Part shown: in pieces, positions 963 to 61,825 of the stretch | Layout: every line of letters begins with the position of its first letter | How positions within the stretch are numbered: the stretch's first letter is position 1 | Origin: Lytechinus pictus | Lineage: Eukaryota | Reading direction: 5' to 3' | DNA: 64,000 nucleotides | Assembly (NCBI RefSeq): GCF_037042905.1 | Contig: NC_087251.1 | Location: 42,348,001-42,412,000 of the forward strand | The notes under the pieces: model-generated | What the model saw: the letters and a program-made list of their open reading frames with translations, nothing else | The model's database searches: none | Told to the model about the DNA's origin: nothing | Position numbers and translations under genes: made by a program

Positions 963-1219
963 TAGAGCTGCCAACATGATCAAGAACATTTCAGTATTTT
1001 AAAAGCTGAAAATCAGTATTTTGGTGAGGAAGTCAGTATTTTCAAAGAAATGCCATAGAACACATAAAACTGAAACTTTATATATCATTATTTCGCATGA
1101 ACCCATCAGGAGTGTGGAGTGAGTTGATTTTCAACTATGAAGGTCACACTATTACAGAAGAGGAGTAAATCATTTTTCATTAATAAATAACTGAAAATCA
1201 ATACGACTTTGCAGCCCTG
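963..1219. mobile_element. Degraded hAT-like MITE
   Basis: Imperfect TIRs TAGAGCTGCCAA / TTTGCAGCCCTG; no clean TSD. Confidence 0.4.
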
Positions 1220-1951: not shown

Positions 1952-2063
1952 CTTGCGATCTACTCCTTATATTACAGCTATCGATGGTTGGCGAGCAGTT
2001 GGCATCAACCTCTACACAGGAGTGCTTGTGATGTGGTTGATTGGAGTTGCTTTCGGGATTAAA
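1952..2063 (-). CDS. FBXO11: FBXO11 exon 8
   Basis: TTTGTAG acceptor and GTAAGG donor, 112 nt; encodes FNPESNSNQPHHKHSCVEVDANCSPTIDSCNIRSRSQ. Confidence 0.95.
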
Positions 2064-32000: not shown

Positions 32001-33630
32001 GAAATTATACCAATACAAACAATTCCATTCAACGATACATGCCTAAAACTACAAATGGGTAAAAAGTATAACCACTGTAAATGTAGGCACAATACTGCAC
32101 ACAGACATATGTTGTATATCCTGACATTTTAGACAATATACATGTACTACATGTACATATATAGAAGGAGTGTCTTATAAAATGTCTGCTGAAATATACC
32201 TGTTCTTTATCCTGACGACATGTTTTGCACAAGGAGTACATTGAAGGCACAATCTGTTCATACATAGGTTGACCCTGGAGGGAAGGAATTTAGGCAAGGA
32301 TCTGCATGTCATGATGAGTCAAGGGGTGAACTTTACAACCCTCTTAGTTTAATGACTAGAATTTGCATTTTACTGGCTCATGCCATCTTGCAAAAAAAAA
32401 TGTCTGAATATAATCTAAACGATAGCTGTATCTTTAAAGGGAAGCTACTCTTGTGGAAAAGATTGAATCAATAATTGAGGTTTTCAAATTCTAGTATATC
32501 TATATGGAAAATGTTAAGACTATTATAGGAGAAGGGTTCGATTCAAATAATTATTTCTAAGATGCCCTTATATTCAAGCTATGGCTTAAAGGGGCTGAAG
32601 TATTTGGGCCAAACATTTGTGTGTCCTATTGCTATTGAGTATTTTTAGTGACAATTTTAAAGAACAAACGCTCAACGGCAATACCCTAAAATTCATCCAA
32701 GACTTTATTCAATTTTTTTTTTCAAAAAGGAGCTTAAAAGCATAGGTCTACATCAGAGATTCTGATGAATCCAAAAGATATACATGCCTGCAGAAATGAC
32801 AATCCCACGTAAATTTACAAGATTAGATTGTCATCTTGTCCCAGACTCCCATACAGGCCAACGTGTATATCGAAATCAAATTCAAGAAATAGATCTCTCA
32901 GAGTCAAGAAAGAAGGGAATATTTATAATTTACGTGGTAGTTAATGACTAAAATCAAACTAACATTGGCATTTGATACCAAATATATTCTTTAAGTTAAG
33001 GCAGACCTCGGCCTATTTTAGAATACTGTACTAGAATATATGATAATGTACATACATTACACACATGCACTTGTATTCAGGAGATCATGAAGTGGAGAAA
33101 AATCCACCAAATGTATGTCAGTATGACTTCCTTCTTACAGAAATACATTCTTCACACGGACATGTTACAGAATACATAAGGCTATAACTCTCGGATCCTC
33201 TATCAGCCTTGATCCTGTATTATCTTGACAGTTTGTTGCCTAGCTATACATTTCCCATTAGCCCCACAGAGGCTGTACCACAAATTACAGAGGATATTAT
33301 ACTCGGGCGCCAATATGGCCAGTTTCCTGCCAACGCACACAGAATCACTGCAAAATGTGGATCCCTGCCGAAAAAAGAGACATTTCAAACATACTTCACA
33401 GGGTATACTGCTTGAAGAATACTGTAAAGGGACTTTAAAATGTTGAAAGGCTTTTAAAAATTGCACTGAAGTAATGTACATGTATTTGCTTCTGTATGTA
33501 TATCAAATTAACTATATGTATTATGCCTCTCTTGGAAAAGATTTTATAAGTAGTAGTACTACCAAATAGTAATAGCAGCAGCAGCAGCAGTAGTAGAAGT
33601 TATAGTAGTAGTAGTAGTAGTAGTAGTAGC

Positions 33631-33662
<32 letters not shown>

Positions 33663-33707
33663 AAGTAGTTGTAGTAGTAGTCATAGTAGTATAGCAGTAG
33701 AAGCAGC

Positions 33708-33777
<70 letters not shown>

Positions 33778-33786
33778 TAAGTACAT

Positions 33787-33883
<97 letters not shown>

Positions 33884-33922
33884 GAGTAGTAGGAGTAGCA
33901 GTAGTAGAAGTAGTAGTAATAG

Positions 33923-34000
<78 letters not shown>

Positions 34001-46000: not shown

Positions 46001-46166
46001 AGGATCGAGAATTAGGAACGCACACAGATTGATTAGTTAGGAATGAATGGGCACCAAACAGACAAAGAGCCTTACCATTCGACAAAGAACTGCTTGGTTT
46101 CTTCTCAATCAATCGTGCTGATCTTCTCACTGTAGTTCCAGATGATCTTTTCTCAGGCGTCGACAT
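1952..46166 (-). CDS. FBXO11: F-box only protein 11 (SCF substrate receptor), 5' part; 8 coding exons, continues beyond the left edge of the window
   Basis: Exons 46166-46076, 20590-20478, 11121-11040, 9958-9811, 6101-5972, 4572-4362, 3608-3502 and 2063-1952 join in frame (994 nt) with GT/AG ends. The product contains PYSLRRK, RAKRSRLS, the F-box [42 protein letters not shown], then WKESF, [37 protein letters not shown] and NCSPTID, all recognisable from FBXO11. Confidence 0.95.
2243..2550. mobile_element. PIF/Harbinger-like MITE
   Basis: TIR GGCCCGTATACTGAAGTCAGGTTTAACTT / AAGTTAAACCCGACTTCAGAATACAGGCC; a diverged inverted copy lies at about 7182-7482. Confidence 0.75.
3039..3465. mobile_element. 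hAT MITE
   Basis: Perfect 15-bp TIR CAGGGTGCTACATAA, perfect 8-bp TSD CATAGAAG, subterminal CTTGCCC/GGGCAAG repeats. Confidence 0.92.
3502..3608 (-). CDS. FBXO11: FBXO11 exon 7
   Basis: Poly-T-CAG acceptor and GTAAGT donor, 107 nt; encodes [36 protein letters not shown]. Confidence 0.96.
3852..4065. mobile_element. Harbinger-like MITE (CAG flanks)
   Basis: Imperfect TIRs (..CGTCTTACAAAGA / TCTTTGTATGATG..); same family as the interrupted copy at about 59799-61864. Confidence 0.6.
4362..4572 (-). CDS. FBXO11: FBXO11 exon 6
   Basis: CAG acceptor and GTATGT donor, 211 nt; encodes YSAVHVKPGYAAY...YYDTIDEAL...HEGVYTGEWLYIDTPVCILGA. Confidence 0.96.
4772..5203. mobile_element. Crypton-like non-autonomous palindromic element
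   Basis: About 200-bp hairpin (4772-4970) centred on GGGGCGAAGCCC, plus a third inverted copy of the terminal motif (GTAGGATATAAA) at about 5192-5203. Confidence 0.55.
5685..5832. mobile_element. Small MITE with ATAGACCT...AGGTCTAT termini
   Basis: TIR ATAGACCTT / AAGGTCTAT. Confidence 0.55.
5972..6101 (-). CDS. FBXO11: FBXO11 exon 5
   Basis: TAG acceptor and GTATGT donor, 130 nt; encodes KRLYQSVYELSLPLLRPGPTKFKFVQPDKLDVPNIWKESFKTL. Confidence 0.95.
7182..7482. mobile_element. Diverged copy of the 2243-2550 MITE
   Basis: Ends GACTTCAGAATACGGGCC; shares TTTTGGCTTCCCATAATTTTAGCA with the 2243 copy in reverse orientation. Confidence 0.6.
7751..7995. mobile_element. Harbinger-like MITE
   Basis: TIR GCCTTTTCACACA / CGTGTGAAAGGGC, with internal TTTCACAC repeats. 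Confidence 0.5.
8758..8984. mobile_element. MITE with TAG..CTA termini and 9-bp TSD (AcademH- or MULE-like)
   Basis: TIR TAGTACAGTTTGGCCCTTTTGAG / CTCACAAGGGCCAAACTGGGCTA; perfect TSD GCTAAAGCC at 8749-8757 and 8985-8993. Confidence 0.8.
9187..9785 (+). mobile_element. Kolobok-like MITE family A, copy 1
   Basis: TTAA-AGGTCAAGTCCACCCC ... GGGGTGGACTTGTCCT-TTAA, about 600 bp with long internal inverted repeats. Confidence 0.85.
9811..9958 (-). CDS. FBXO11: FBXO11 exon 4, F-box domain
   Basis: TTTTTGTAG acceptor and GTACGT donor, 148 nt; encodes [49 protein letters not shown]. Confidence 0.96.
10308..10541. mobile_element. hAT-like MITE
   Basis: CAAGGCT.../...AGCCCTG termini, near-TSD TCTATAC/TTTATAC, internal TTGGTGGCCC repeats. 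Confidence 0.55.
11040..11121 (-). CDS. FBXO11: FBXO11 exon 3
   Basis: TTTACAG acceptor and GTACAGT donor, 82 nt; encodes SSSPGSSPMTRAKRSRLSSHTDTQASG (compare RAKRARVS). Confidence 0.88.
12325..12784. mobile_element. Harbinger-like MITE
   Basis: TIR GACCCCGTTCTCA / TGAGAACGGTGTC and subterminal AAAACTAGTTTACTGGAAAC / GTTTCCAGTAAACTAGTTTT. Confidence 0.7.
14960..17655. repeat. Decayed element with many (CA)TCACGGACGGACA motifs and a ~400-bp tandem duplication
   Basis: Motif occurs on the + strand at about 14965, 15143 and 15340-15370, and in both orientations at 16850-17655; the units 16851-17267 and 17268-17640 are direct duplicates. Confidence 0.6.
16117..16495. mobile_element. PIF/Harbinger MITE
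   Basis: TIR ..CCTTTCATAAAC / GTTTATGAAAAGG.., TTA flanks, internal TTATCCGCA / TGCGGATAA repeats. Confidence 0.7.
18557..18960. mobile_element. PIF/Harbinger (Tourist-like) palindromic MITE
   Basis: TIR GGCCCGAATTCACAAAG, TTA TSD on both sides; near-complete fold-back along its length. Confidence 0.92.
19503..19646. mobile_element. Harbinger-like MITE family B (CWG flanks)
   Basis: GGGAGCGTTTCATGAAAGGACTTGTCGGA...GATGAAACACTCCC; same family as 49714, 49940 and 53827; decayed relatives at about 6908-7043, 10601-10750 and 57665-57822. Confidence 0.8.
20478..20590 (-). CDS. FBXO11: FBXO11 exon 2
   Basis: CAG acceptor and GTAAG donor, 113 nt; encodes ELGSNSKIRTSCPHHDQSQQPYSLRRKASTLCSGRWDL (compare vertebrate SPYQLRRK). 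Confidence 0.85.
23590..24188 (-). mobile_element. Kolobok-like MITE family A, copy 2 (reverse)
   Basis: TTAA-AGGAAAAGTCCACCCC ... GGGGTGGACTTGTCCT-TTAA; reverse complement of the 9187 copy. Confidence 0.85.
26720..27149. mobile_element. PIF/Harbinger MITE
   Basis: TIR GCCCCCATCACACTTATTC / GAATAAGTGTGCTGGGGGC, TTA TSD. Confidence 0.8.
27173..27450 (-). mobile_element. Truncated reverse copy of the 31320-31794 MITE
   Basis: Shares GCAGGCAAGGCGCGAGATTCAAAA and CCTGCGACCTTGGAAAA with the 31320 element in reverse orientation. Confidence 0.7.
28282..28398. repeat. Perfect 57-bp tandem duplication
   Basis: AAATCTATCAACATTGGAC...GATTACAGATGGA present twice. Confidence 0.9.
30583..31190. mobile_element. 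Tc1/mariner-pogo type MITE (CCGT termini)
   Basis: TA|CCGTAAGGGCACTAGTATTCAACCCG ... CGGGTTGAATACTAGTGCCCATACGG|TA; internal ACTAGTATTCAA repeats. Confidence 0.85.
31320..31794. mobile_element. PIF/Harbinger MITE
   Basis: TIR AGGTGGTTTCAGACTGCCTCGA / TCGAGGCGGTTTGAAACCACCT, 3-bp TSD CCT. Confidence 0.85.
33549..34073. repeat. Compound microsatellite (AGT)n with (AGC)n and (GGT)n
   Basis: About 520 bp of trinucleotide repeat; explains the poly-L/Y/T ORFs. Confidence 0.98.
34072..34460. mobile_element. Fold-back repeat with TCGTCTAA/TTAGACCA subrepeats
   Basis: Left half has ttcgtcc/ggtcta motifs, right half has the inverted tagacca/agacga motifs; GGT..ACC ends. Confidence 0.5.
34495..35314. 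mobile_element. hAT-like non-autonomous transposon
   Basis: Perfect 19-bp TIR TAGGGACAGTGATTTTCCG, subterminal ACGGAA repeats; TSD obscured by flanking AGT repeats. Confidence 0.85.
35406..35943. mobile_element. MITE with poly-G/poly-C termini
   Basis: GGGGGGCACTTCCATTGAC / GTCAATGGAAGTGACCCCCC; internal CCCTAAACA repeats. Confidence 0.7.
36032..36100. repeat. (ATT/ACT)n microsatellite
   Basis: Seen directly in the sequence. Confidence 0.9.
37021..37632 (+). mobile_element. Kolobok-like MITE family A, copy 3
   Basis: AGGTCAAGTCCACCCC ... GGGGTGGACTTGTCCT-TTAA, colinear with the 9187 copy. Confidence 0.85.
40081..40934. mobile_element. Tc1/mariner-pogo type MITE (GGGG termini)
   Basis: TA|GGGGAAGGCGGGGTAAGTTG ... 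CAACTTACCCCGCCTTCCCC|TA, a perfect 20-bp TIR; internal GGGGCAAGTTGAGC repeats. Confidence 0.9.
41172..42214 (+). mobile_element. Helitron/Helentron-like non-autonomous element with ~160-bp tandem units
   Basis: About 6 units containing TTGACCTTAAATTACCTTTGACCTTGGTCATGTGACCTGAAA; 3' end with a short hairpin-like segment followed by ACAAAAA. Confidence 0.65.
43814..44404. mobile_element. Kolobok-like MITE family C
   Basis: TTAA-AGGAGAATGAAACTCTTG ... CAAGGGTTTCATTCTCCT-TTAA; long internal inverted repeats. Confidence 0.85.
44405..44697. repeat. Long palindromic element (left arm continues at about 43793-43813)
   Basis: Arms GAATTTTGATGATAAACAGATCAGGATCAGCCAGGTTC / GAACCTGGCTGATCCCGATCAGTTTGTCATCAAAATTC. 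Confidence 0.75.
46076..46166 (-). CDS. FBXO11: FBXO11 putative first coding exon (MSTPEKRSSGTTVRRSARLIEKKPSSSLSN)
   Basis: ATG at 46166, donor G|GTAAG at 46075; phase 1 fits exon 2; lies in a CpG-rich promoter-like zone; basic VRRS motif. Sequence conservation is weak, so this exon is less certain. Confidence 0.7.
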
Positions 46167-46420
46167 CGTCAGAAAGAAGAAAAAAAGCAAATTTCTCACG
46201 TAATTTTGACGAAAATCTCCTCCTTACCAGGCATCATTCGGAAGGTCACCCTGTTAAGCCTAGCCTGCGCTGCGCCAGCGTACCGGTTCCTTATACACTC
46301 TCTCTACGTTACACACGCGTATCCGTACCCGCACAGCTTTAATACGGTACCGTACCGTACATAAACAATAGACAATTCAAGCTGCTCATGCACTGCAAAT
46401 CTATCTGCGCAGCTTGAAAA
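46167..46420 (-). promoter_or_regulatory. Putative FBXO11 5'UTR/promoter (CpG-rich)
   Basis: Local CpG enrichment immediately upstream of the exon 1 ATG, against CpG-poor introns. Confidence 0.45.
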
Positions 46421-46851
46421 TGCGTTGTACACACAAATTCTGCATAATAATTCCTTTTTATACAACGATAGTTGGCAGCATACACATTCTCCTTCTGCTT
46501 CAAGTTGAAAACCCTCATTCATGGAGAATTGGGGTTATTCGGAAAATACCAAGGTTTATTTTCTTCTTTTCTTATAGTGCCCCTTGCTCTTGGAGGCATT
46601 TGTAGACCTATTAATAGTTACATGGGGGCTAGGGGACTTCGGCTCTTTTTCAATTAACATGTACAAAATTATCATCATTATGCGACCCCTGAAAAGTTTT
46701 TCTTGTTGTGACATTGTAGATTGGGAGTTTGAATTCTGTACTCTAGCTGTATTGCCATCACATTTTCCGTTAAATCCCTGCATCAAAACTCCTGATTGTT
46801 GCGGACTGGTTTTTTAGTAAGTCATGGACATTATTTATGATAGGTCCATGT

Positions 46852-47395: not shown

Positions 47396-47592
47396 CTTGT
47401 TATCTTTTTCCTTTTCCTTTCTTCAAGAAAGGAAAAGGAAAAGGATAAAGATTTTTTCCAATAACGTAAAAAAAAGCTTATCACATTCCACATGTTCATT
47501 CAAACGTGAATGTTTAATTCAACGCATTTGAATCATTGAAGCATGTTAATTGGTCATGAACATAACGAAAAAAAGTTGAGAAAAGATCAACT

Positions 47593-48085
47593 AAAACCAA
47601 CTATATATACGGTTACAGATCCTTCTCCGTTATTGCCCCGAAGCTCTGGAACAATCTCCCCATTAATGTACGTGAGGCATCATCGTTAGAATAATATTGT
47701 TTAAGTCCCTCCTTAAAACCCACCTCTTTTAATAAGTTTCACTTGCCTATTTTTCGCTTCTTTTGTGTTCTGTATGAAATTATCCCCCTTAGTTAATTTG
47801 CATTATCATATTGTGTTCAGATATTTTAAGTCGGATTGTAAGCTTATTTATTAGGATTATTTAAATTTACATACATGATTATCGACCCGTTATATTTAAG
47901 TTGTGTATTCACCGATTATCTCTTTATTTGTACGTATAATTAATTTTTCGTAATGGTGTTTTCACTTTCAGTTCCTTTGTTGTTCTTTTTCTGAGATATC
48001 TTGTATTTTCCCCCCTTCTTTCTTATAGCGCTTTGAAACTTTTGTATAAAGCGCTTTATAAATTTTGTATATTATTATTATTATT
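47593..48085 (+). mobile_element. Decayed L2-type LINE 3' end
   Basis: Reads YGYRSFSVIAPKLWNNLPINVREASSL then FKSLLKTHLF after a disruption; tail AGCGCTTTG...AAAGCGCTTTATA followed by (ATT)n. Confidence 0.8.
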
Positions 48086-49059
48086 TCAGTTACTAAATGA
48101 AACAATACTTGCCTATGATATTTGAAATTCATATTTTTGCTTTCATTAAATGTTCATTGATCCGTGAAACGATGAATAATGTTGAAGATAATCTTCCCAA
48201 AAATAACTGTCATCATATTCGATCATTAATTTTTATCGATAGAAATGTGTGAAAATCAAATTATATATAGCAGAATTTAACTTGTGTTTATTCAACCGTG
48301 AAATTTAGCCAATAAACTTGTATCGTCTTTAATAAAGTACCTTTTACAAGCCTTCTGACTATTTTTCATGATGAGAATGTGGAATTCGTTCCAATAAAGT
48401 GGAATCAAAATCATAATACTTGGCTTGTGACTTTTGAAAAGTGACAATTTTGCCTTCTGGCGGTGCTCACTGAAGCATGACATAAAACACGTTCATAACA
48501 TTTACTCAGAGGGTAGCTTATAAAATTACCTACACGCTTATGTAAAAATATATTAAAAACTCGCTTTGGTTCGGAAATTATAGATGTTTGTTTAAGGGGG
48601 GACTTACTTTTTTTGTTGTGTATAGAACAATAAAAATTGCAGTTTTTACTATGGAATATACACATATTTTGAACTTACTCCCAATGCGATTTTGTTTAGA
48701 AAAAAATTGACAAATCTCTCCATGATAATAAGTACCCATTTCTATAAACATCTTGGCGGTGACTCAACACCCATGCTTCCCAGGGCGAACGGGATTTATT
48801 TACTAACTTCATAATACAATGCGGTAAGAATAACAATTAACGTTGCTTATATATATAGCGCATAATTATAATGATTATAATCATGTCTCTATCGCTTTAG
48901 AAAGAAGAATAGACAGATGGAGAAGAAAGAAAAGAAAGAAAAGCCTGTTCACAGAGGAGCAAATATATAATCAATTAATAGGTACATGTATATCTTATTT
49001 TACAAAGAGGAATGTCTTCAAGTGTTACCATTTCGAGTCAGTATATCACTTATATTTTT

Positions 49060-49650
49060 CATCTCTCTCCTCGATCGCATCGATTGTTAGTTAAATGACC
49101 ATCCTGTGTATCGTTTCAAAAAGTGCTTAGAATCCGAGCTTTTGGGTCAAAATATAATATTTTATGCTCGCATCAATAAATTGTTAAAATATACCCATCC
49201 TGTTCATGGCCCCAAAATTGCTTAGAATGTCAAAATGTTAGGTTATAATACAAAAAATTTCTGCTCGCGCTTTGCGCTCGCATCAATAATTTTAGATATA
49301 TAACGATCCTGCTCGTGGTCACAAAAGTGCTTATAAATTCTAAATTTTAGGCCAGGATGTCAAAAATTTTCAGCGAGCGCGAAGCGCGAGCTGCAATTGT
49401 TTGGATAGATAGGCCTACCCATCCCGTTTATGGTAAAAAAAAGTGTTTTAATAGAATGTCCAGTTTTGTGTTGTAATAACAAAAAAAAAATCAGGTCGCG
49501 TTACGTGTTCGCATAAATTTTTAGTTAAAATATACCCATCCTGCTTTGACTGAAAGTGCTTAGAATGTCAAAATTTTGGGTCAGACTATAATTTTTTTAG
49601 CTCGCGCTTTGCGTTCGCATAAAATGTTTGTTTAGATACCAATCCTGTTC
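49060..49650. repeat. ~120-bp diverged tandem units with GCTCGCGCTTTGCGCTCGC core
   Basis: Repeated GCTCGC..., ATACCCATCCTG and AAAAGTGCTTAGAATGTC blocks; related units at about 51320-51660. Confidence 0.6.
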
Positions 49651-49713
49651 ATCATTCATGTTCATGGGAGGCGCCATTTTCCGAAAAGTATACATGAAGG
49701 GCGCCAAAATCTG

Positions 49714-49870
49714 GGGGGCGTTTCATGAAAGGACTTGTCGGACGTATTATCCGACAAGTCCCATTTCATCCGACAGTTACCATAGTAACAGTACCTCTCA
49801 GCCAATCAACATCAGAGAAAGATGTCAGATCTGACAACTTGTCGGATGAAAATGTTGATGAAACACTCCC
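49714..49870 (+). mobile_element. Harbinger-like MITE family B
   Basis: CTG|GGGGGCGTTTCAT...ATGAAACACTCCC|CAG. Confidence 0.85.
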
Positions 49871-49939
49871 CAGGTCCACGGGGTGCTGCTCGTGCCTTAT
49901 TAGATATCTCACCTTGTTTGTAAGGAAAACCAAGAAGTA

Positions 49940-50096
49940 GGGAGTGTTTCATCAACATTTTCATCCGACAAGTTGTCAGATCTGACATCTTTCTCTGATG
50001 TTGATTGGCTGAGTGGTACTGTTACTATGGTAACTGTCGGATAAAGTGGGACTTGTCGGATAAAACGTCCGACAAGTCCTTTCATGAAACGCCCTC
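49940..50096 (-). mobile_element. Harbinger-like MITE family B (reverse)
   Basis: Near-identical reverse complement of the 49714 copy. Confidence 0.85.
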
Positions 50097-50328
50097 CAGA
50101 CTTTAGTGTGGACTATACCCCGTAAATATAAACAAAATAAGCTTTTAGCAGCCGACTGGGAAAATGGAGGTGAAAATATTTTTTCCGCCCCCACCCCCTA
50201 AATTCTTATGCTTCCGCCGCCATGTTTGACACAGGCCTACTGACCTGAAAAAGAGGTAATTTCAAAGAGCTGTTCTGAATTAGAGAAGAGTAAGCCTACA
50301 CATAGGACCCTAGCTATCTCGCTGTATA

Positions 50329-51145
50329 CAGTGCGTCCCACAAAAAACGAAACCGAGATTTATCGATGATTTATCATAACTTAATCACAAATACAATAGA
50401 CAAATGACCTACCATCTTAAAGCTTAGAATCTCTTCTTTCATCTGGTATTACTTAGATAATTCCTCATTCACGCATGAGTGAGCAAAAACAATTTGAAGA
50501 AAGAATACAAAAAACTCATTTGGCGGGCCGTATCTGGGTTTTAAAAAGAAAACCACATGACTAAAAAGTTCAATATCTGCTCTTTAATTTGATACCTCAA
50601 TTACAGAAAATGGTCAAGAAATAACAAAGTTCTGGTTATTTGAAATAAGGCTTGAATTTCAATAATTTCATAAAATGAAGAGGTTTTACAGGCTAGCGTT
50701 CAAACTCTCTCGACATTCCGTTTTGTTGACGATCAGCCATGCAAAGTCTTTTGTTACCGTGCGATAGCTTCTGTGGGAAGCCAGTGAAAACACGTTTATT
50801 TAATGAAATTATGGAAATACAAGCATTGTTTCGAGGGATCATAACTTTTTTAATTCTTGACCATTTTCTGTGATTAAGGTATCAAATAAAAGAGCAGATA
50901 TTGAACTTTTCAGTCATGTGATTTTCTCTTTGAAATTCAGATACCCCCCGCCAAATGAGTTTTTGGTATCCTTTCTTCAAATTGTTTTTGCTCACTCATG
51001 CGTGAATGAGGAATTATCTAAGTAATATCAGATGAAAGAAGAGATTCTAAGCTTTACATTGGTAGGTCATTTGTATATTTTATTCATGATTAAGTTATGA
51101 TAAATCATCGCTAAATCTCGGTTTCGTTTTTTCTGGGACGCACTG
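50329..51145. mobile_element. Tc1/mariner MITE (CAGTG termini, long TIRs)
   Basis: TA|CAGTGCGTCCCA..AAAAAACGAAACCGAGA ... TCTCGGTTTCGTTTTTTCTGGGACGCACTG|TA; inverted arms longer than 300 bp. Confidence 0.93.
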
Positions 51146-53219
51146 TATAGTCAAACATTTTTTCATATTCGGCAACTTTTCATTATCATGAACAGGATAG
51201 GGCCTACAAATCTCGCTGAATAAAAACCAATGAAACCCAAGTCGCGGGCATGACTTAATTGGAACGAGATATTTTAAGTCCTCTGTTCTTGAGAATGCAG
51301 ATTAGGTAAAGTGAGGGCCGCCGAAGCGCGAGCGATTTTAATTTAGGTTCAAATAATGACATGAAAGTTATTTTCCAATTATTCCCCTCCCTTTGAATTT
51401 GAATTTATTAACAAACTTCATTCACTTTTCGCAATTCTTTTCAGCCTGCGCTTAGCGCTCGCAACGTTCGTTTATTACGATATTACCGGGCGATATTACA
51501 TACCTCGAAAAAAAAAATCGCGCTTGTATTATAGTATGTAGACCTGCTTTGTTAAAAACATGTTTAGCTCGCATGATTTTTTTTTAGTTAAGTTCTCATC
51601 CTGTTCGTGGTTCAATAAGCTTCGCGCTTGCATTTATGATTGCATGAAATGTGTATAATGTGCATAATATTATTATGATTTTTTTTTCAAGTTGTCAAAA
51701 CTTTGGGGGGAGCAAATCGATATGGTTGCCCCCCCCCATATAATTATTCATGGGGTCGTTCATCCCCCTGCCCCCGGATCGACATCTCTGTCACCATCAT
51801 TACGATAATTAACATCATCATCAGGGATGGGGGGGGGGGGGGGGTTAGATATCTCATCTCATCAAGAAGCCGCCTCTTGCGTCTCTAGTCAACTCTAATA
51901 TTGACTGCTATAGCTGTGATTAAAAAAAATTGTATTTGAAAGAAATTTTGAGCGCCCTCAAAATGGGAAAAGACTGAAGAATTTGAAATAATTCCTCTTA
52001 CTGCGAGAAGCGCGGAAGCTTAAAACGTTTTATGAAAATAGAGAACAGAAATGATACAATTATGCCTACCTTGTTCACATCAGATTTTATTGTAAAAAAG
52101 TTTATCCACATTAAATTTCGTTAACTCGATCAAGTAGCCAAACAGAGTAGTAGACGGGTATATACAGGAAAGAAATATGCCCTATTCCTTCCCGCGAATG
52201 GCGTTGTTCGAAGGTCTGACTTTTAGAAATTTCTCCGAAACTTTAACCTGTTTTAATTTCTTAGAGTATATATAACTCGATTAAGAAGAAAAACGAGCTC
52301 AGAAGTGAAAGGGATGATGCAAGCTAGAAGAAAGACTTTTTCTTCCTCATATACTCGCGAAGCACGGAAACCTTTGTGATTTATTCTAGGTTTTTTATTA
52401 TTTTGACCCCAAAAAAAGGGGATAAAACAACAACAAAGCTATCCCTTTTCTCCTTTCGTTTTTCTTTTTCTCCCTTTCCCCTTCTTTTTTTTCAAGTTCT
52501 TTTTGGGAGTGATTTTTTTTTTTTTTTTTTGGGGGGGGGGGGGGCCACAGCCCCCACCGCCCCCTGGCTACGTACGCGCCTGCATCGTCACCAATTCACC
52601 ATCATTATGCCCCTTTAGCAGCCCATGCATATCATCATCACCATTCGCTGCCACTCGCGGGTCAGGGAGTTTTTAATGGGGTGCGTTTCGCCTTCCCCCC
52701 AAAATGGGGGGAAAAAAGGAAGAAAAAGAAATAGATCACTAAAAAGAAAGGTCGTTTGGTCTCCATAAGAATTGAATGACAAAAAAATCAATCAATCAAT
52801 TAGGTTTGTAAGACTCCTGTCAATATAGAAAAAGATTAAGACTATTTCATTATGCGACTCTTGAATATAAACAAATGCAGTAGCAAGATTACATAATGAT
52901 ATTGGCCTATATATGCAAACAACGGATTCACGATCACCCCGTTATGTGCCCATCTACCTTTCCAAAAAAAAATAAGTGTGTGTAGTCCCGTGTGTAGTTG
53001 AGTTTTATTCGTGATGAACTTTTATAAAAAAAAAAAAGGAAGATTATATATTGTTGGGAATTCTTGATGTGCCTAAGTTATAAATGAGTCAAGTGCATAT
53101 TCATTATCTTTTATACGAGAAATAGTTTACATTTTCTTCTTTTGATTTAATATACGAGAAAGTCCCAAGGGGGGGGGGGGGGGGTAAAGGGACTCCACGA
53201 AAGAAAGCTGATTTCAGGG

Positions 53220-53415
53220 TAACCCCCTTATTTCCCTTGACCGACACGGCCCGGTACCCGACGCGACGGACGTGCGTGACACATGGTGCTGATCGTCTTT
53301 GGTGCTGATTCATATAACACGTGGGAATACCGGTGCGCGGTATTAAATCTGCTACAGTGCAGTTTACGCGACAGTACCGGTACGAGTGGTGAATAGCGGT
53401 TTCCGAGACTGAAAA
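53220..53415 (+). promoter_or_regulatory. Putative methyltransferase promoter/5'UTR (CpG-rich)
   Basis: Dense CpGs, a CACGTG E-box and TGAC/ACGT motifs directly before the ATG at 53416. Confidence 0.45.
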
Positions 53416-53709
53416 ATGGCTCAATTTCTCAACACTTTTACCAGTAACCGCCACTATTTTGTGGGAGCTGCATTATTAGCAACGTCGAGCATTGCTGCTT
53501 ATTCAACCTACAAACTCTTGAGTCATGATGACAGTCGTTTAGAAGTAGAAAATAAGTATGAAACTGAAAAACTTGTCAACGAATATTTAGTATTTCATTA
53601 CGGGGCTCCCGATGAGTTGCTTCGCTACAGTGTCGGCCCCAGGGATGCCCTGGACTTCCCTCGCAGAGTTGCGGACGAAGCCCTGCACGGCCTTCTCACA
53701 ACAGACAAG
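53416..53709 (+). CDS. Methyltransferase exon 1 (hydrophobic N-terminal segment plus YET...FHYG motif)
   Basis: AAAATGG start, AAG|GTAAAT donor, 98 codons. Confidence 0.9.
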
Positions 53710-56700
53710 GTAAATAAAAATCTTATAACAAATCATGAAAAGGTGCCATATTGTTCACAATATTCGACCTAAAATAGTATAATTTTTTCAGTGCTGAATT
53801 AAATTTTGAATGAATACCTGGTCCAGGGGGGGGGTGTTTCATCAACATTTTCATCCGACAAGTTGTCAGATCTGACATCTTTCTCTAATGTTGATTGGCT
53901 GAGAGGTACTGTTACTATGGTAACTGTCGGATAAAATGGGACTTGTCGGATAAAACGTCCGACAAGTCCTTTCATGAAACGCCCCCCTGGTCGGGCCGCA
54001 TATTTTTTATTTACAAATTACACCATTGGCATGATTGGCATTGCTCCGCCAAACGGCTCGAGGGCAAGTCTAATCTGTGCTCAAGCAAAGCTCTCGGATC
54101 GTTCTCGCGTGAGATTTTGGCTAAGTTCTCAGTGTATGAAGTTGAATATCCTTCTTCTTCCGTTGAGTACAGTCCTCTTTACAGAGTACCGTATAGTCGT
54201 ACTTGGCTGAGGCCGCAATCACAAAAACATATGACATTTGGTGCAGTTGAACAAAACTTACCTCGAGCGATGTTCGTGCAGGCTCCACTCCACTTCTCTA
54301 CCGCTACACTACGCTCCACCTGCCCGAACATCGGGACGGTGAACCAGTTTGGATATATACCGAGTGATAAAGGTGGGATCAAATTCTATGAAATTCTACG
54401 AATCAGTGGAATATTTCCCCAATCTCTTGGAATATTTCTGGTAATTTTCTGAGCCATCCAATATAATCATGCTGTTTGACCAGCGACCCTGGCATGCGAT
54501 GTTTTGATTTTTGAAATCGGCCGTGAAAAATTACATGTGAGGAATTAGATACTCGCCTAAAATCACCAATTTTGAGGATAACCGGAGGATGGACACGGAG
54601 TGAAATAAGGGTGAAGAGTAAGAAATAAAGCTATTTTTCTTTCTCGTTATATTTTTTTCTATAATTTTTACAATAAACCACCATTTGATCCCACCTTTGT
54701 CACTCGGTATATCCGAACTGGTTCACCATCCCGATGGACTCTTGCACTTGGACTCGGAGTTGGACTTCTTAAATCATTGCTCCCTATTTTTAATAATTTT
54801 TTATGAAACCATAGACTGTATGATAGTCTAGAATTAGATCTTGCAGATTTTTCTGAAGAATTATTGCGAGCACAAAGTTTTGAAGGTATAAAGATGAAGG
54901 AAAAATAAATTATTCCAGTTGAAATTAGAATAGATCTAATTGTAATAAATTTTTGTGCAAAGGGTTAAATTAACTTCACTCAGCTTAGTCACAAAGAAAG
55001 TTGACTTATTAAACCTTTGTATGGTCAGTTCCCCCATGTCTGCGCGGTCTCCCAAGTCTGCGCACCCGCGTATCTGCGCGATTCTAGTAAAAGAAGATAC
55101 GCAACGAGCATGAACTTTACACATGCAATACATAGACAGGTATTCATAAAAAAATCCAACTCAAAATGGTGGAAAAATAATGAATTCAGGGCATTTCATG
55201 TGACGACCTCAAAATGCAGCCTTTGTCATCAAAATCCCCGAATCGTGTGCAAAGTGAATGAGTGCGCAGACATGGGGTACCATTTTTTTTTCAATCTGAA
55301 AATGACTGCCCAAAGGTTTTTTCAAGAAAATCTTATATTTTCTTTGATTTTTTAATGAGAAATTAGGTACACTTATTCTTAATAATATAAGGAACACTAT
55401 TAACCAAAAGATTTTGTGAAATAAGAAGAAATTCATGTTAAATCTTAACTCAAATTGTTAGGTGCGCAGACTTGGGGCCCACCATCATAATATACTGCAT
55501 GTCTGTAATAAAATAATAGTAAAAAGGAATGAATTTATTGAATTGTGGTTTGGACAATCTTTTGACAGCAGGTGCCTGTTTTATGAACTTTTTCAAACTG
55601 CATTATAATTATCAGTAAGTAATCAATTGATTATATTGGCTAATGGCATGGTAAACTTGTTATTTGTTTTTCAAACAGGGCTTTATGAAACGGGACCCAG
55701 GAATCAAATTAACAATGCACATTGAAATATCTATTTCATTTTGATTGCAGAGCACAATCCCAAACAGAGCTCTTGACATCGGCTGTGCTGTTGGAAGGAC
55801 CTCTTTTGAGCTGGCGAGAGAATTTGAGCAAGTTGTTGGTATTGATTTCAGTCATGCCTTCATAGAAACATGTAATCTTCTCAAGGATCATGGTTCTTTG
55901 CAGTACTCTGTCACGGATGAGGGAGACCTATGCACGAACCTGACTGCTGTCGTAGATTCAACAATAGTAAGTAGTCCACCCTTTATTTGATTTGGGAAAG
56001 TTCATTCGAGGACCGTATGGGAAACCAAAACAACTCAAAGATATGAAGAAACGGAATGCAACAATACAATCTGTGTACCTGAATTTCAGAATTTCCGATT
56101 GTTTTGTCTAACATAGCAGCAATACCCGCATGAGAGGCGAACAAAGAAATCAGTAAAATATGGCTAAGAGCTGGTTCACATAAATCTAAATATTTCTCTC
56201 TGCAAAATTCCTGACCTATACTGGTAGGCTATTCCAGAGTCTGAGGACTGCAAAACCAATATTCCCCTTTTCTTTCCCAACATTCCCTTTTTCGAGTGAG
56301 CACTGCATTGAAGACCATTCGACTGGAGAGTAGACCAACTTATTACTGGTATTATATTTGTATACATTTTGAATATTGTGTTCTGTAATCCTCTAAGTAT
56401 TTCTGAATACATTTGAGCCCCCCCCCCAATCAGTTGTCAGATAATCATGTACTAAGAATATTTTTCCATACTGCACTTTGACAGAGTATGTAACGCCTGC
56501 TTTTACAAACTTTGCTCATTCTCCTGCAGACGACAAGAACACACTTATCGAAACGTCCAAATTGGGTGGTCCTTTTCAGGACCAACACTTGCGCCCAAGA
56601 AAGATACATGGTGTACCGTGAAACCTACTGCACTATTCTTCTTCGCCGTGGAAACCTTCAGAATTTACATTATTTTTCTCATATTCAATCTAGGATCGAA

Positions 56701-58230
56701 AAAGATGTCACTTTCAGCAAGGCGATGCTTGCAACCTTCCCCTAGATTTGGGCTTGTTTGGTTGTGTGGTGGCGGCTAACCTTATATGTAGATTACCAGA
56801 TCCGATGGACTTTCTGAACAGGGTTCCCGGTCTTGTTGCTTCCGGAGGTTTACTAGTACTCACGACACCAGCTTCCTGGGACACTGAATTTACACCAAAG
56901 GTATAGGATTTCAGCTAGTCCTCGTATCTTTTTTTCCATCATTATCTTCCCTGAAAACCTTACTCTTCTACAAAGCATACGACATTCCATATATTAAGTA
57001 AGGACTACATATTCTTTTTCTTCTCTCTCTGTGCACTGAAAAGATAATACAAATGCATAAAATCACTATTATTTTACATTATTAAAACTCTGAGCAGTTT
57101 GAGTTTGAGATCTGGAGATAAGTCAATGTAAATCCATTCTGATTTTCTTGAGCTTTTTGCAATACCTCATAATTCAAAATTGTTTCCCTTTCTAATGCTC
57201 CCTACAGGCCTCTACAAATTTTTTTTTCATCATTTGCCCGAAAGGGCAAGTGATGAAAATATTTGCTTGCCCGATAGAAAAAACTGCTTGCCCAATTTGT
57301 TTTATTATTTTCTTTCATTATTTTTTTATGACTACTATTATTTTTGAAGGTCATATAAAATAAAAACAATTGAAAATCATGTACAGTAAAGAACACACAT
57401 TTATAAGTTTATTTTCAGCAAAGTAGGCCTGAGTCATTACGTGTATTTTGAAGAAAAAAAATACTATACTAGTAGATCTAAATGGGCGTTTAAGGAAAAG
57501 AAAAAAAAACCTTCACCAAAAGTTGCTAAAATTTCATATTTTGCATCTGTAAATCCATGAATGGTCATCTGTTTGCCAAATTTCCTTGGAATTGTTTTGA
57601 TTTAGTTGGAAATTATTAAGAAAATGAAGAATATTCAGTTCAATGTGAAGTATAACTTAAATGAACTGGGTTCTCTTTCATAAGGACTTGTTAAATAACA
57701 ACAAATGCAAAAAATTCTATATCAAATTTACTATCAGCCATTAATATCAAATAATTTTAGTAGCTTTAAACTGTTACTACAAATTTGTTATATTAGAATA
57801 CGTTTTATGAAACCTGCCCCTGAAAAAGTTTCAGTCTGAAATTGTGATTTTCCCTTTGCGAGCGTGCTAAAATGCATGCTGGTTAGATATGTATGAATAG
57901 CAATTTGCACAGACCTCAACTTGAGATGATACCCGTTTTAACTATGTTTTTAGTGTATATAGAAAAGTATTTATAACACAAAAATATTCAAAAACATTGT
58001 TTTATTCTAGACTGAATTATGATCGTACTTTGAACTCTGAACAGGCCAAGTGGCTTGGAGGCTACAGGGACAAAGATGGCAAACCTGTTACCACTTTGGA
58101 CTCGTTAAAAAGGATTCTAGGGCCCGATTTCACTCTGATGGATGACAGAGGTCTACCCATGTTCATCCGGGAAACCGCGAGGAAAAACCAATGGACAGTG
58201 CCGCAACTTAGCGTCTGGAGACGGAAATGA
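53416..58230 (+). CDS. Stand-alone class I SAM-dependent methyltransferase, OvoA C-terminal-like (putative 5-thio/mercaptohistidine N-methyltransferase family), 300 aa, 4 exons
   Basis: Exons 53416-53709, 55751-55966, 56694-56900 and 58045-58230, all phase 0 GT-AG, from ATG to TGA. Motifs YETEKLVNEYLVFHYG, RALDIGCAVGRTSFELAR (SAM motif I), VVGIDFS, FQQGDACNL, AANLICRL, WLGG, FIRETARKNQ and W-RRK are characteristic of the OvoA methyltransferase domain. Confidence 0.9.
53827..53986 (-). mobile_element. Harbinger-like MITE family B in methyltransferase intron 1
   Basis: Near-identical to the 49940 copy; CAG/CTG flanks. Confidence 0.85.
54329..54736. mobile_element. MITE with ~55-bp TIR
   Basis: CATCGGGACGGTGAACCAGTTTGGATATA..CCGAGTGATAAAGGTGGGATCAAAT and its inverse at about 54684-54736. 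Confidence 0.75.
55020..55489. mobile_element. TA-flanked MITE with GTCTGCGC subrepeats
   Basis: CCCCATGTCTGCGC and CCCAAGTCTGCGCACC on the left; GTGCGCAGACATGGGG and GGTGCGCAGACTTGGGG on the right. Confidence 0.6.
55751..55966 (+). CDS. Methyltransferase exon 2 (SAM-binding motif I)
   Basis: TTGCAG acceptor and GTAAGT donor; encodes STIPNRALDIGCAVGRTSFELAREFEQVVGIDFS... Confidence 0.93.
56694..56900 (+). CDS. Methyltransferase exon 3
   Basis: TAG acceptor and AAG|GTATAG donor; encodes DRKRCHFQQGDACNLPLDLGLFGCVVAANLICRLPDPMDFLNRVPGLVASGGLLVLTTPASWDTEFTPK (absent from the ORF track). Confidence 0.93.
58045..58230 (+). CDS. Methyltransferase exon 4 (terminal)
   Basis: ACAG acceptor; encodes AKWLGGYRDKDGKPVTTLDSLKRILGPDF...FIRETARKNQWTVPQLSVWRRK-stop. 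Confidence 0.92.
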   Translation, partial: AKWLGGYRDKDGKPVTTLDSLKRILGPDFTLMDDRGLPMFIRETARKNQWTVPQLSVWRRK

Positions 58231-59598
58231 TGTCTACGATCCTTCCCGATGATGTTCTGATTTTTGGCGTGTATCAAGGAATATACCTTTCCTAGTATCA
58301 AGTCCCATCGCATCCGTTCTCCTTTCCTTTCCATCTGAGAGCTTCATATAGAAAGTCAAGTTTCTTTCTGCATCTGATTTGACTTTGCTCAATTCTCTGA
58401 TTAAACAGCTTCATTTCAGTTAGTTAGGAGTCAAAAGTTTTAAATCTGGTTTGTCCCTGTTGAATGGGAGTGGCTGGATTCACCTTACACATGTAGTAAT
58501 CACCCTCACCCCCTTCCTCTACCTTGCAAGATTCAGTGCGTCCTCCATCTTAAAACCAACTCCCTAACTTTTCTTCTTTGGCTGTCCTGTTCTCTCTGAA
58601 ACATTTTTATTGGTATTGATACAAGTTAACAGTGTGTAACCACCACTTCCAATTCACATGATTGCATGGTTGATGGGTAAGATCACGAGGAAGAGGGAGG
58701 GGGGGGGGGTGCTGCTGTGTATAAACTGAGAATAGCATCCAGTCAATACAGTCGTAAACATAGGTTTCAATGTTTGTAGTTAAAAAAAATCAAATTATTA
58801 ACTCTTCATCTCTCACCCTGCAGTGTAACATGTGGTGGTAATAGTCTATTTTTGTGGTTTGAGACTCTAAGTCTATGTTTAGGAAAATGTCTATAATAGA
58901 GTTTTTAACTTTCTCCAGGAGTAAATTATTGAACTAGATTTTCAATGTATTATTTATATTTTTTCTGTACACGATAGATAAATGTACGAAGAACTTAAAA
59001 ATTCATGTTCATTTAGAGAAGTGTCCATCCATATTATAATGTGATCTACAGTAATTACTTTAATTAAAGATTAATTGACTTGTATGTTGATAGTCTTTTG
59101 TTTTCTTAAATGATGAATTAAGAATATTATGCAAGTGACATTACAGTGTGTGAGTTAAATTGTTAGTTTTCATTTACTTTATTAATTGGAGACCAAAATT
59201 AAACACTTAAGGCATTTCCTATACTTGGTAATGGTTTGGTCTGAAGTGTGGATGGAAATTGATTGAGCTGAATTTAGTACCTGTCATCAAATTTTAGCAG
59301 TGGGACTATTTATTTTACAAGTGTGACTGTATTTCATATTGCTGAGAATCATGATTTATTCAGAATTTAGTAATGAAGTAATGATCAGTAGATCATATAT
59401 CCTTTTCAAATTGGCAACATTGGTAAGAAGCACCTTGTGGCTGGATTGGTACCACGTAAGTTGGAACCATCACTCACAAGCATTGTTGAATAAATCTATT
59501 GCTATAGTGAAAGTATAGTCACACTGAAACTGACTTCAAAGTTTCAAACCGACCAATGATACGCAATTCAAAATAATGTAATTGCTTTGCTTGATCTG

Positions 59599-59748
59599 GG
59601 CCCTGTTGCAGAAAGAGTCGCGTTTAACGAAAGTAAAAATATCAAGAGAAAGTTCCGAATATCGGTACGGGTGCATCATTGGCTGAAAATCAAGCTGCGC
59701 AAGATTTTTTGAGTTGCGTTAGATCGCAACTCTTTCTGCAATGAGCCC
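59599..59748. mobile_element. Harbinger-like MITE
   Basis: GGCCCTGTTGCAGAAAGAG / CTCTTTCTGCAATGAGCCC. Confidence 0.65.
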
Positions 59749-60031
59749 TGTCTTACAAAGAGATACGATTGATCTGATCGCAACTCTTTCTGCAATGAGC
59801 CCTGTCTTACAAAGAGATACGATTGATCTGATCAACCTCAACTATGGAAAGCCAGCAACGCCCACATCTAAAACTACATGTTTGTTCAAAATATTTTCTT
59901 GATATGATGTATATTCATACATTCACTGTTTTCTTGGCAATTCAGTATGCTTCTCATTGTTTTCAAAGGACATTGAACAGATTTCCTAAAGAAAAAAATT
60001 ATGACATTGATGGATTTCCATATACTTGAGA

Positions 60032-61825
60032 TTAAGCCTGAGTCGAATCGATTTTAAAATCGGTGTTCGATCGATGTCATCGAGCGCCGGTGCAGATTTT
60101 GCAAAATCGGTGCATCGAAAAAAAAAAGAAAAAAAATACATCGGCCGGCAGATTTGTTTGATTCACACAATCAATCATCAAAATAAACAGAAATGTCCAA
60201 CTTGACTACTAGTACTACTTACTTGATTTGTATTCCCCCCAAAATGAAACCGATTGTGTAATTATGATGCCTATTCACCATTAATTTGAAGTTTATTTCG
60301 ATCATAGTTCGAGTCTTACTCGTCTGCTCGTGCCGAGATAATTTATGCACGATGAATTCATGAATGGAAATCATCGATTGTGCAGCGCATGCGCTGTACT
60401 GTGCTTTAATCAAAACAGAAAATGGCCGGAAAATTGACGCAATCAACGTAAAATAAACCTTGCTATCATGAACAATATTAATATCATGACCATAGAACAT
60501 TATTTAATCGTAATATTTGACAATAATTTGCATATGATAATCATTAATATGAATTTAGAGCTTGATGTGAAACGTTTGTATTTCGTTTCAATTTTCAATG
60601 ACGGACATCACATGACGATCGACTTGAGCGAGAACACTTGTCAAAAAAAAAAAATTATCACGTCAGGATTGATTCTCGAACATAATTGTCAACATGCAGA
60701 AACTTTTTCAAGATCGTAATATCTCCATATAATAACATTTTACATCATGTAACATGACAAAACAGAGTAAATTGCGTGATATTTTTTTTCCATCAATTTG
60801 AAGCTAATTTGTGCCCAACTTCGAGCTCTGATTTTCATTAATGGAAAATATGTCCTACGTCAACGAACGCGCATGCGCATTGTGCTTCTTTTTCTCGGAG
60901 CTAGCTAGCTAGCTCCGGAGACGTCCAGGCCAGAGATGGAATTAAAATAAAAAATAATGCCAGTATATTAAATACTATAAATACTTCCATATGAACATGA
61001 AATGCTTTGCTGACATTGTCATTATCTTTAATATGGCCATAAAATCTTATTAAATCGTAATTACTTAACATCCAATAATAATTCATATGAATTTAGTGCT
61101 CGATCCGAGACATATTTATTTCGATTGCATGCTCTTGTCTTGACGTGTCTAAAATTAAAAAAATATGGATTATCATATCAGGATTAATTCTCGAACATCG
61201 TCATTACTCATATTCCACAATCTTTCCTCACAATCGTTATATCAGCATTGAATACCAATTCAAATGACCATCCAGAGAAAATTACGTATTTATTCCCGTC
61301 AATTTGGAGCTCATTTTGGATCTAACTACACAATCTCAGGCAAGTTACAGTGCTCCCGCTGGTTGCACTTTTTTGCTGGCGATGGCCGGGGCTGCGGGCG
61401 GGGGTGGTGTGTGCGAGTCTGGACCGCGAATGCTAGTTGACCGAGAATCGTTCGGATCGACTCTGCGTGATTCATGTCTTTGATATTGTTTCATTTTAAA
61501 CTTATATATTGTCATCTGCAAATATCATTGTTGATGATATTTTGGGAAGAATTCTGCATTGGTCCCGGCTTTTTTGTGTTTTGTGATCATGGAAAATACA
61601 AACGAACTTTGCTCTGTCATCTGCTTGTGCAACGCTCACCCAGCCAGCGCATACCGTCAGTGCATGCAATGCGTGCATAGTGCATCGACGACGCGACGGC
61701 CGGAGCAAAAAAAATATTGACTCGATTTTCCCCGCCGCGCCTTCAAAATTCGATTCATCGATGTTCGATCGAATTAAAGCTGTCGAACACCGGTTTTCAA
61801 AATAATCGATATGACTCAGGCTTAA
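60032..61825. mobile_element. 1.8-kb non-autonomous DNA transposon nested in a Harbinger-like MITE
   Basis: TTAAGCCTGAGTCGAATCGATTTTAAAATCGGTGTTCGA ... TCGAACACCGGTTTTCAAAATAATCGATATGACTCAGGCTTAA; CpG-rich, with no transposase ORF. Confidence 0.8.

Follow-up and report, generated by a model that had tools for sequence, protein, structure and literature searches.

Which enzyme methylates 5-thiohistidine on its imidazole ring to give ovothiol A in animals? This question is raised by a gene in a 64,000-nucleotide stretch of the sea urchin Lytechinus pictus genome (assembly GCF_037042905.1, contig NC_087251.1, positions 42,348,001 to 42,412,000 of the forward strand), called here the window; positions without a contig name are those of the window. 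The gene, intact and composed of 4 exons, is present at 53416-58230 on the plus strand and encodes a protein of 300 amino acids (aa) that ends at a TGA stop. The initial annotation, made from the letters alone, described it as a stand-alone homolog of the methyltransferase domain of OvoA and as a candidate second enzyme in ovothiol metabolism. Our analysis places the protein fully within the OvoM/OvsM/OvoA-C-terminal thio/selenohistidine N-pi-methyltransferase family. Sequence comparison further suggests that the gene may encode an S-adenosylmethionine (SAM)-dependent class I (Rossmann-fold) OvoM/OvsM-type N-pi-methyltransferase making ovothiol A, and that the C-terminal tail of animal OvoA may no longer do so, a proposal for and against which we find the case evenly balanced.

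The four exons contribute 98+72+69+61 = 300 aa, each exon is in phase 0 and all three introns have GT..AG ends. An in-frame TGA is located two codons 5' of the ATG at 53416. The region just upstream is CpG-rich, with a G+C content of 0.52 and a ratio of observed to expected CpG (obs/exp) of 1.35 at 53200-53420 against 0.37 and 0.61 window-wide. RNA molecule ends cluster at 53168 and 53389 in one run, and a transcript contig begins at 53287. The gene can thus be laid out as follows (UTR, untranslated region).

53200-53420, no strand assigned: CpG-rich patch of the promoter, where transcription probably starts (base composition, RNA molecule ends, contig start)
53287-53415, plus strand: 5' UTR, minimum extent (contig start with 0 differences)
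53416-53709, plus strand: exon 1, coding part, residues 1-98, with the N-terminal extension, its hydrophobic anchor and the YET..EYL.FHYG helix (donor GTAAAT at 53710, RNA joint)
53458-53508, plus strand: codons of the hydrophobic segment, residues 15-31, a predicted N-terminal membrane anchor (Kyte-Doolittle)
53710-55750, plus strand: intron 1, containing interspersed repeats (GT..AG joint in RNA reads and contigs)
55751-55966, plus strand: exon 2, residues 99-170, with SAM-binding motif I LDIGCAVGR (55772-55798) and the beta-2 acid D130 (TIGR04345, RNA joints on both sides)
55967-56693, plus strand: intron 2 (GT..AG joint, RNA reads)
56694-56900, plus strand: exon 3, residues 171-239, with QGDACNL and AANLICRL (TIGR04345)
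56901-58044, plus strand: intron 3 (GT..AG joint, RNA reads)
58045-58230, plus strand: exon 4, coding part, residues 240-300 and the TGA stop, with WLGG and FIRETARK (TIGR04345)
58231-58688, plus strand: 3' UTR, minimum extent, which may reach ~59.5 kb (contig end at 58688)

Expression was examined by aligning two raw RNA-seq runs and two assembled contig sets to window positions 47500-60500. The joint 53707>55749 (cut +2) is covered by 11 and 13 reads in the two raw runs, the joint 55966>56694 by 10 and 8, and the joint 56898>58043 (cut +2) by 5 and 5. All three are GT..AG and come from one read direction, and the RNA depth in exon bins is 5-9 in that direction against 0-1 in the opposite one. 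An assembled contig of 1490 nt joins 53287-53707, 55749-55966, 56694-56898 and 58043-58688 with 0 differences from the window. Downstream of its end, RNA depth in one direction extends to ~59650, and an AATAAA is present at 59489. The spliced protein aligns without gaps to LOC121418274 of Lytechinus variegatus ('uncharacterized protein'), with 293 of 300 residues identical (97.7%). The exon structure proposed in the initial annotation, its start codon with a CpG-rich promoter and the six motifs that it had quoted from the translation are all borne out. Two differences from the window are visible in the RNA reads. Codon 8, in the N-terminal extension, reads Val for Phe (G for T at 53437) in 12/12 and 22/22 reads, and most reads carry a 5-base insertion after 58249 in the 3' UTR; both are probably variation between individuals.

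The gene stands alone, because its transcript starts at 53287, a stop codon lies upstream in frame and no sulfoxide-synthase exon is found on its contig. It does not encode a bifunctional OvoA, in which the methyltransferase is fused behind a DinB/FGE sulfoxide synthase in one chain. Between 47500 and 53400, no canonical GT..AG joint into exon 1 was found in RNA reads or contigs. In a profile search covering the whole 812-Mb assembly (where the window is C7:42348001-42412000), exons matching TIGR04344, the sulfoxide-synthase model, occur only at the ovoA locus on contig C11 and not on C7; with this distribution and the lack of a canonical upstream splice, we rejected a fused transcript. The one joint that does reach upstream, 48052>56593, ends in GC..GC, with 17 letters inserted and one side of 21 letters, and looks repeat-derived. 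A complete ovoA including its C-terminal exons maps to C11:34595856-34649041 with Strongylocentrotus purpuratus OvoA as tblastn query, so that the canonical fused gene lies elsewhere in the genome, as the initial annotation had supposed. With a bacterial OvoA and the stand-alone protein as tblastn queries, the motif-I exon alone is detected in the 20 kb that follow ovoA. The assembly search gave no further canonical TIGR04345 gene; the remaining four matches to this profile score 30-32 bits and are confined to the SAM-loop region, ovoA being one of the four.

Assignment of the stand-alone protein to its family rests on several features. TIGR04345 of NCBIfam ('putative 4-mercaptohistidine N1-methyltransferase', ovoA_Cterm; 242 positions, cut-off 170 bits) matches exons 2, 3 and 4 with 83.1, 64.9 and 50.3 bits at profile positions 43-103, 115-182 and 184-242. 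The window protein was scored exon by exon, and the full-length score is that of the 97.7%-identical ortholog, which passes the cut-off with 231.5 bits over profile positions 1-242; the six stand-alone orthologs tested from animals all reach 231-248 bits across the same positions. Pfam recognizes Methyltransf_25/31/11/12 on exon 2. The best solved relatives by sequence are OvsM (9bxh, E 1.4e-61), OvoA_Th2 (8khq, 2.3e-51) and OvoM (9bxl, 7.9e-49), and the next one follows at 7.5e-07. The AlphaFold model, for which 50 relatives were used, reaches a predicted local distance difference test (pLDDT) score of 94.2 and a predicted template modelling score (pTM) of 0.84. Foldseek superposes it on 9bxk, 9bxl and 9bxn with a template modelling score (TM) of 0.93, a root-mean-square deviation (rmsd) of 1.9 and 39-45% identity (E 1.1e-33 for 9bxk), while the next fold family, other methyltransferases, appears at E 2.3e-10. 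Among 166 canonical rows of the family, stand-alone and fused, 44 alignment columns are conserved to at least 85%, and the window protein keeps 44/44 of them. These include G109/G113 of the SAM loop, D130, D181-A182, N199-L200, R203 and Y48/Y57/H61, together with T237/W242 and R281-E282..R285-K286..Q288. Profile score, family fold, conserved residues and co-occurrence with an OvoA-type synthase therefore agree, and the homology to the OvoA methyltransferase that had been recognized in the initial annotation is sound. With this gene, the known OvoM/OvsM kind gains a new member from animals, one that has a predicted membrane anchor in addition.

Comparison with the characterized relatives shows where the animal protein differs. 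OvoM of Sulfuricurvum sp. STB_99 (PDB 9bxl, 9bxm, 9bxn) is likewise free-standing, has ~250 catalytic residues, resembles the model at TM 0.93, rmsd 1.9 and 39% identity, matches residues 44-298 in sequence (E 7.9e-49) and has a separate sulfoxide synthase as partner. However, it is bacterial and is without an N-terminal anchor, whereas the animal protein is longer by 34-53 residues, which include a hydrophobic segment, and coexists with an OvoA that carries a remodelled methyltransferase-like tail. The OvoA of OvoM hosts is not known to have a methyltransferase domain. The C-terminal domain of bacterial OvoA (OvoA_Th2, PDB 8khq; also called OvoC) matches TIGR04345 in full, is 40% identical to the stand-alone protein and has all family motifs. 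In contrast to the animal enzyme, which is a separate gene on another chromosome, this domain follows the DinB/FGE sulfoxide synthase in one fused protein.

OvsM (PDB 9bxh, 9bxj, 9bxk; assayed from Halomonas utahensis) is also a stand-alone protein and is the nearest solved relative (E 1.4e-61, 45% identity, TM 0.93). This proximity raises the possibility that the animal enzyme acts on 5-selenohistidine, giving an animal ovoselenol, or on another imidazole or thiol metabolite, all the more as the sulfur and selenium substrates differ little. According to PDB titles, the crystals of OvoM and OvsM were obtained with 5-thio- or 5-selenohistidine. However, OvsM belongs to a selenium pathway with OvsA, SenB and SenC and has no membrane anchor, and the only sulfoxide/selenoxide-synthase locus found in the urchin genome scores as OvoA. 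The phyletic pattern of the stand-alone gene also tracks OvoA. According to an excerpt of its description, OvsM transfers a single methyl to N-pi of 5-selenohistidine and does not accept histidine (PMC11030361). On balance, a substrate other than 5-thiohistidine seems very improbable.

A different role, suggested in the initial annotation, is alpha-N-methylation, by which the stand-alone enzyme would turn ovothiol A into ovothiol B and C. The enzyme for this conversion is described as not yet assigned (PMC12631010, PMC8623360, both in excerpt), ovothiol B or C is reported from urchins and molluscs in part of PMC9890322, and if the fused domain of OvoA were active, the stand-alone enzyme would need some other job. 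However, retention of 44/44 conserved columns argues for the substrate pose of OvoM/OvsM. A match to EgtD-type alpha-N-methyltransferases is absent from the Pfam results (E up to 1, four exons), which comprise only Methyltransf_11/12/23/25/31 and similar families, and no EgtD model is among the NCBIfam matches. The gene is moreover equally conserved from placozoans to sharks, yet ovothiols B and C are described as rare in an excerpt of PMC8433421. We therefore consider this role improbable, and the idea found no positive support in our data.

The tail of animal OvoA presents a very different picture from the stand-alone protein. The initial annotation took the fused OvoA domain to be a 5-thiohistidine methyltransferase in general. 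This holds for bacterial OvoA, whose C-terminal domain was reportedly found by Naowarojna in 2018 to methylate 5-thiohistidine, but not evidently for animal OvoA, whose tail is without the hallmarks of the family. Twelve animal OvoA proteins were scored, from urchins, a hemichordate, tunicates, a shark, molluscs, a brachiopod and cnidarians. All twelve pass TIGR04344 with 517-660 bits (cut-off 400), and all twelve fail TIGR04345, reaching 48.9-111.4 bits against the cut-off of 170 with a match that stops at position 164-179 of 242. Two bacterial fused OvoA proteins score 341 and 347 bits on TIGR04345, and two bacterial free forms 249 and 293 bits, in each case with full coverage. With a local hidden Markov model (HMM) of the family, 48 of 49 named animal OvoA sequences with a length of 650 aa or more score 29.6-92.5 bits with matches ending by position 190 of 255, and one gives no match, compared with 305-362 bits for seven bacterial fused OvoA proteins.

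The differences are concentrated in the motifs that define the family. In all animal OvoA sequences aligned, the YET..EYL.FHYG helix is unrecognisable, QGDACNL has become KQ-(L/F)TW.PNE, the N-L of AANLI.RL is lost and FIRETARK is gone. A segment of ~23 residues located after beta-5 and before the next helix (YTW..EFTPK..WLGG..) is deleted in all of them. By alignment ranges it corresponds to about residues 638-663 of OvoA_Th2, a stretch that, in an excerpt describing that structure, forms a hairpin with flanks touching the partner monomer's N-terminal domain, the methyltransferase domains being the dimer core (PMC10696552). Y57, D181, A182, L200, P229, T237, W242 and Q288 are kept in none of the twelve tails. 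On average 44% of the 44 conserved columns survive in the tails; these are chiefly the glycine loop, the beta-2 acid, R203, G222 and two Trp. The tails of animal OvoA, for example from S. purpuratus, P. lividus and Diadema, are distant homologs of the stand-alone protein in the same organisms. They have its basic fold and glycine-rich loop but are without YET..FHYG, GDA, NL..RL, the W.GG segment and FIRETARK. When both come from the same species, the free enzyme is 22-32% identical to the OvoA tail. In L. pictus the exons of the tail are located at C11:34637075-34649041.

Rates of change point in the same direction. Over 21 pairs of seven species with both genes, mean identity is 58.4% for the stand-alone protein, 59.7% for the N-terminal module of OvoA and 33.8% for its C-terminal domain; because the first two values are so close, the stand-alone enzyme appears as constrained as the catalytic heart of OvoA. 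Across 36 animal OvoA sequences, positions conserved to at least 90% number 18/212 in the C-terminal part against 191/481 in the N-terminal part. In a FastTree phylogeny the animal fused domain forms one long-stemmed clade outside the 166 canonical rows, a long-branch situation from which we draw no origin. The simplest reading is that canonical N-pi methylation is carried out by the stand-alone gene, because the fused domain has lost the hallmarks of the family and the stand-alone protein keeps all of them.

The most probable competing explanation is redundancy. The OvoA tail would still be an active 5-thiohistidine N-pi-methyltransferase, and the stand-alone protein a second isozyme in another compartment or tissue, or one that salvages free or dietary 5-thiohistidine. 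The fused domain is folded, has OvoM as its nearest structural relative and retains both the glycine loop and the beta-2 acid; the N-terminal anchor, specific to animals, suggests a distinct location for the stand-alone form; and in the literature, as far as the excerpts go, animal OvoA is treated as bifunctional (PMC4768315, PMC8623360, PMC9890322). However, the eight family-conserved positions kept in none of the twelve fused domains, the deletion of ~23 residues in all of them and an evolutionary rate about twice as high as that of the stand-alone protein speak against it. In the literature searched, sulfoxide-synthase activity is the only activity found to have been assayed among animal OvoA proteins, and no assay of an animal C-terminal domain was found. 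For the cone-snail enzyme (ConA), an excerpt of PMC7954447 reports sulfoxide-synthase activity and calls the later steps 'convergent and/or unknown'. We regard redundancy as unlikely. Of the two parts of the initial annotation's proposal, homology to the OvoA domain stands, but an accessory role beside a working fused domain has become less likely since that domain has lost the hallmarks, and the view of the stand-alone gene as an accessory paralog is probably the wrong way round.

A precedent for a methyltransferase-like tail without its reaction exists in bacteria. AshA of the actinothioneine pathway has a vestigial methyltransferase domain, a divergent OvoA-like tail without detectable activity according to an excerpt of PMC13674229, which parallels what we propose for the animal OvoA tail. 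However, AshA is bacterial and acts in a pathway to a 2-thiohistidine dipeptide, and the parallel bears on the fused domain and not on the gene in the window.

The stand-alone protein has acquired a feature of its own at the N-terminus. In 30/30 animal orthologs examined, 34-53 residues are present ahead of the YET motif, and in all of them this extension contains a 17-residue stretch rich in Ala/Gly/Ser/Thr with a Kyte-Doolittle mean of 1.18-2.34. The stretch usually ends in Tyr and is followed by 1-5 Lys/Arg within the next ten residues. In the window protein the 17-residue maximum is 1.33 at residues 15-31, and in the AlphaFold model residues 12-45 form one helix. Two other opisthokont sequences share the extension, a third non-animal eukaryote has 8 residues ahead of the motif, and the bacterial relatives aligned start at about the YET motif. 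Residues ~13-35 are therefore predicted to form an N-terminal membrane anchor without counterpart in the bacterial relatives. As to which membrane, an excerpt of PMC9890322 reports a diatom OvoA as mitochondrial, which serves as a lead only.

The distribution of the stand-alone gene was drawn from its 120 best relatives, which are 165-525 aa long and of which the one at rank 120 still has E 9e-74; many of them are unnamed. About 63 named animal species are represented, from echinoderms, hemichordates, amphioxus, tunicates, sharks, rays, chimaera and lamprey as well as from molluscs, annelids, a brachiopod, a nemertean, cnidarians and Trichoplax. The label is 'uncharacterized', 'hypothetical' or that of a generic methyltransferase-domain protein in nearly every case, one being 'ubiquinone biosynthesis O-methyltransferase-like'. 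No named entry among these 120 is from a bony vertebrate, insect or nematode. OvoA itself, according to the part of Castellano 2016 (PMC4768315) at hand, has not been found in bony vertebrates, nematodes and (at least terrestrial) arthropods. By manual count, 26 species are common to the 120 best relatives of the stand-alone protein and the 120 best of OvoA. Two different stand-alone proteins each occur among the relatives listed for Ptychodera flava, Styela clava, Mya arenaria and Elysia marginata, and these pairs may be lineage-specific duplicates, isoforms or haplotypes.

An IQ-TREE phylogeny (quick search, LG+C20, 69 rows) places 25/25 animal rows in one clade with two other opisthokont and two unnamed sequences, supported at 96 by the Shimodaira-Hasegawa-like approximate likelihood ratio test (SH-aLRT). 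The inner order of the animal clade approximately follows the animal phyla, and outside it fused and free forms are intermixed in the trees. The stand-alone gene thus appears, from these phylogenies, to have been vertically inherited in animals.

Taken together, a route to ovothiol A in animals can be proposed. 5-Thiohistidine would be made by the sulfoxide synthase OvoA, encoded on another chromosome, followed by a putative C-S lyase. The stand-alone enzyme, perhaps tethered to a membrane by its N-terminus, would bind SAM through LDIGCAVGR, D130 and D181 of its catalytic domain (residues 45-300) and transfer the methyl group to the imidazole N-pi of 5-thiohistidine, yielding ovothiol A. The OvoA tail would be a folded but heavily remodelled relative without the substrate-side motifs of the family. 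That the stand-alone enzyme is the main or only enzyme of this methylation step in animals seems to us roughly as probable as the contrary. A wider scheme, in which the animal pathway is split, the OvoA tail has been repurposed (maybe for a structural or regulatory role), N-pi methylation has been performed by a membrane-anchored OvoM ortholog since before the cnidarian-bilaterian split and this ortholog was co-lost with OvoA in bony vertebrates, insects and nematodes, is plausible but falls slightly short of an even chance. No paper on the animal stand-alone gene was found in the literature searched. That search did not extend to Ireland et al. 2025 (Structure 33:528), where OvoM is defined and eukaryotic members may be mentioned; OvoM/OvsM-type enzymes are reportedly described there as prevalent in prokaryotes.

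Several observations weigh against an inactive OvoA tail and a stand-alone N-pi-methyltransferase. The animal OvoA tail has a motif set of its own (G.G.G, FKQlTW.pnE, ldR..npkAWL.Rl), and T673, W674, E678 and R692 are invariant in 36 animal OvoA sequences (Diadema numbering, where the tail comprises residues 561-772). In the model of Diadema OvoA, residues 541-640 are confidently folded, with block pLDDT values of 80-96. The tail model is closest to OvoM (Z 24.9, 211 residues aligned, 18% identity) and OvsM (Z 23.9, 21%); generic methyltransferases score ~17 Z, about 8 Z lower. Judged by the model, the tail is remodelled rather than decayed, and is a true but distant homolog of OvoM. Most of the glycine-rich loop and the beta-2 D/E are kept in 12/12 tails, and the SAM-site residues of urchin OvoA are conserved according to an excerpt of Castellano 2016 (PMC4768315), so the tail may bind SAM and be active. 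A complex predicted from Diadema OvoA residues 535-772 and residues 40-297 of the Diadema stand-alone protein has a score of 0.00, which bears neither way on docking. On the side of the stand-alone gene, its closest solved relative is the selenium enzyme OvsM and not OvoM, and the 350-425 bits of animal free forms on the local HMM are inflated because this profile was partly built from them. The RNA depth is modest and the tissue of the runs is unspecified. Co-occurrence with OvoA is based on the best 120 relatives of each protein, many of them unnamed, which makes absences soft evidence. Substrate and regiochemistry, like membrane anchoring and the loss of the reaction by the fused domain, are inferred from comparison and not from enzymology.

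The initial annotation had named FBXO11 as the divergent neighbour, but what was found is a single F-box exon at 9756-10019 on the minus strand (PF12937, E 7.1e-16; PF00646, E 5e-11), 43 kb away; it fits a minus-strand F-box gene but neither confirms FBXO11 nor places a first exon. No other Pfam-recognisable coding piece was detected among the 150 longest other open reading frames (ORFs) and 37 short minus-strand ORFs of 1-9300. CpG-rich patches (obs/exp 1.2-1.5) are also present upstream of the gene at 46050-46450, 34500-35000 and 31300-31800, and the one close to 46.1 kb may serve as promoter for a divergent gene, as the initial annotation had assumed. In the bins 53576-54009, 49670-50103 and 59652-60085, RNA reads and contigs lie very deep on both strands and many read ends are loose; these bins look like transcribed interspersed repeats, the first of them within intron 1. 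Pairs of inverted repeats are visible by eye at ~53830-53990 and ~54350-54722. A long low-complexity block occupies 33500-34200, where several frames of either strand show homopolymeric codon runs (Leu, Tyr, Thr, Val, Pro, His).

Ovothiol is a major antioxidant of the eggs and larvae of marine animals and is of pharmacological interest, and OvoA, the first enzyme of its biosynthesis, is so far the only animal ovothiol enzyme assigned. If the proposed role is correct, the animal pathway gains a second named enzyme, and knock-down, expression and biomarker studies that track only ovoA overlook one step. The stand-alone gene would then be needed to produce ovothiol A heterologously from animal genes, and the conserved but remodelled tail of OvoA would become a question of its own. 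Levels of ovothiol A in the egg would depend on a gene that is nearly always labelled 'uncharacterized'.

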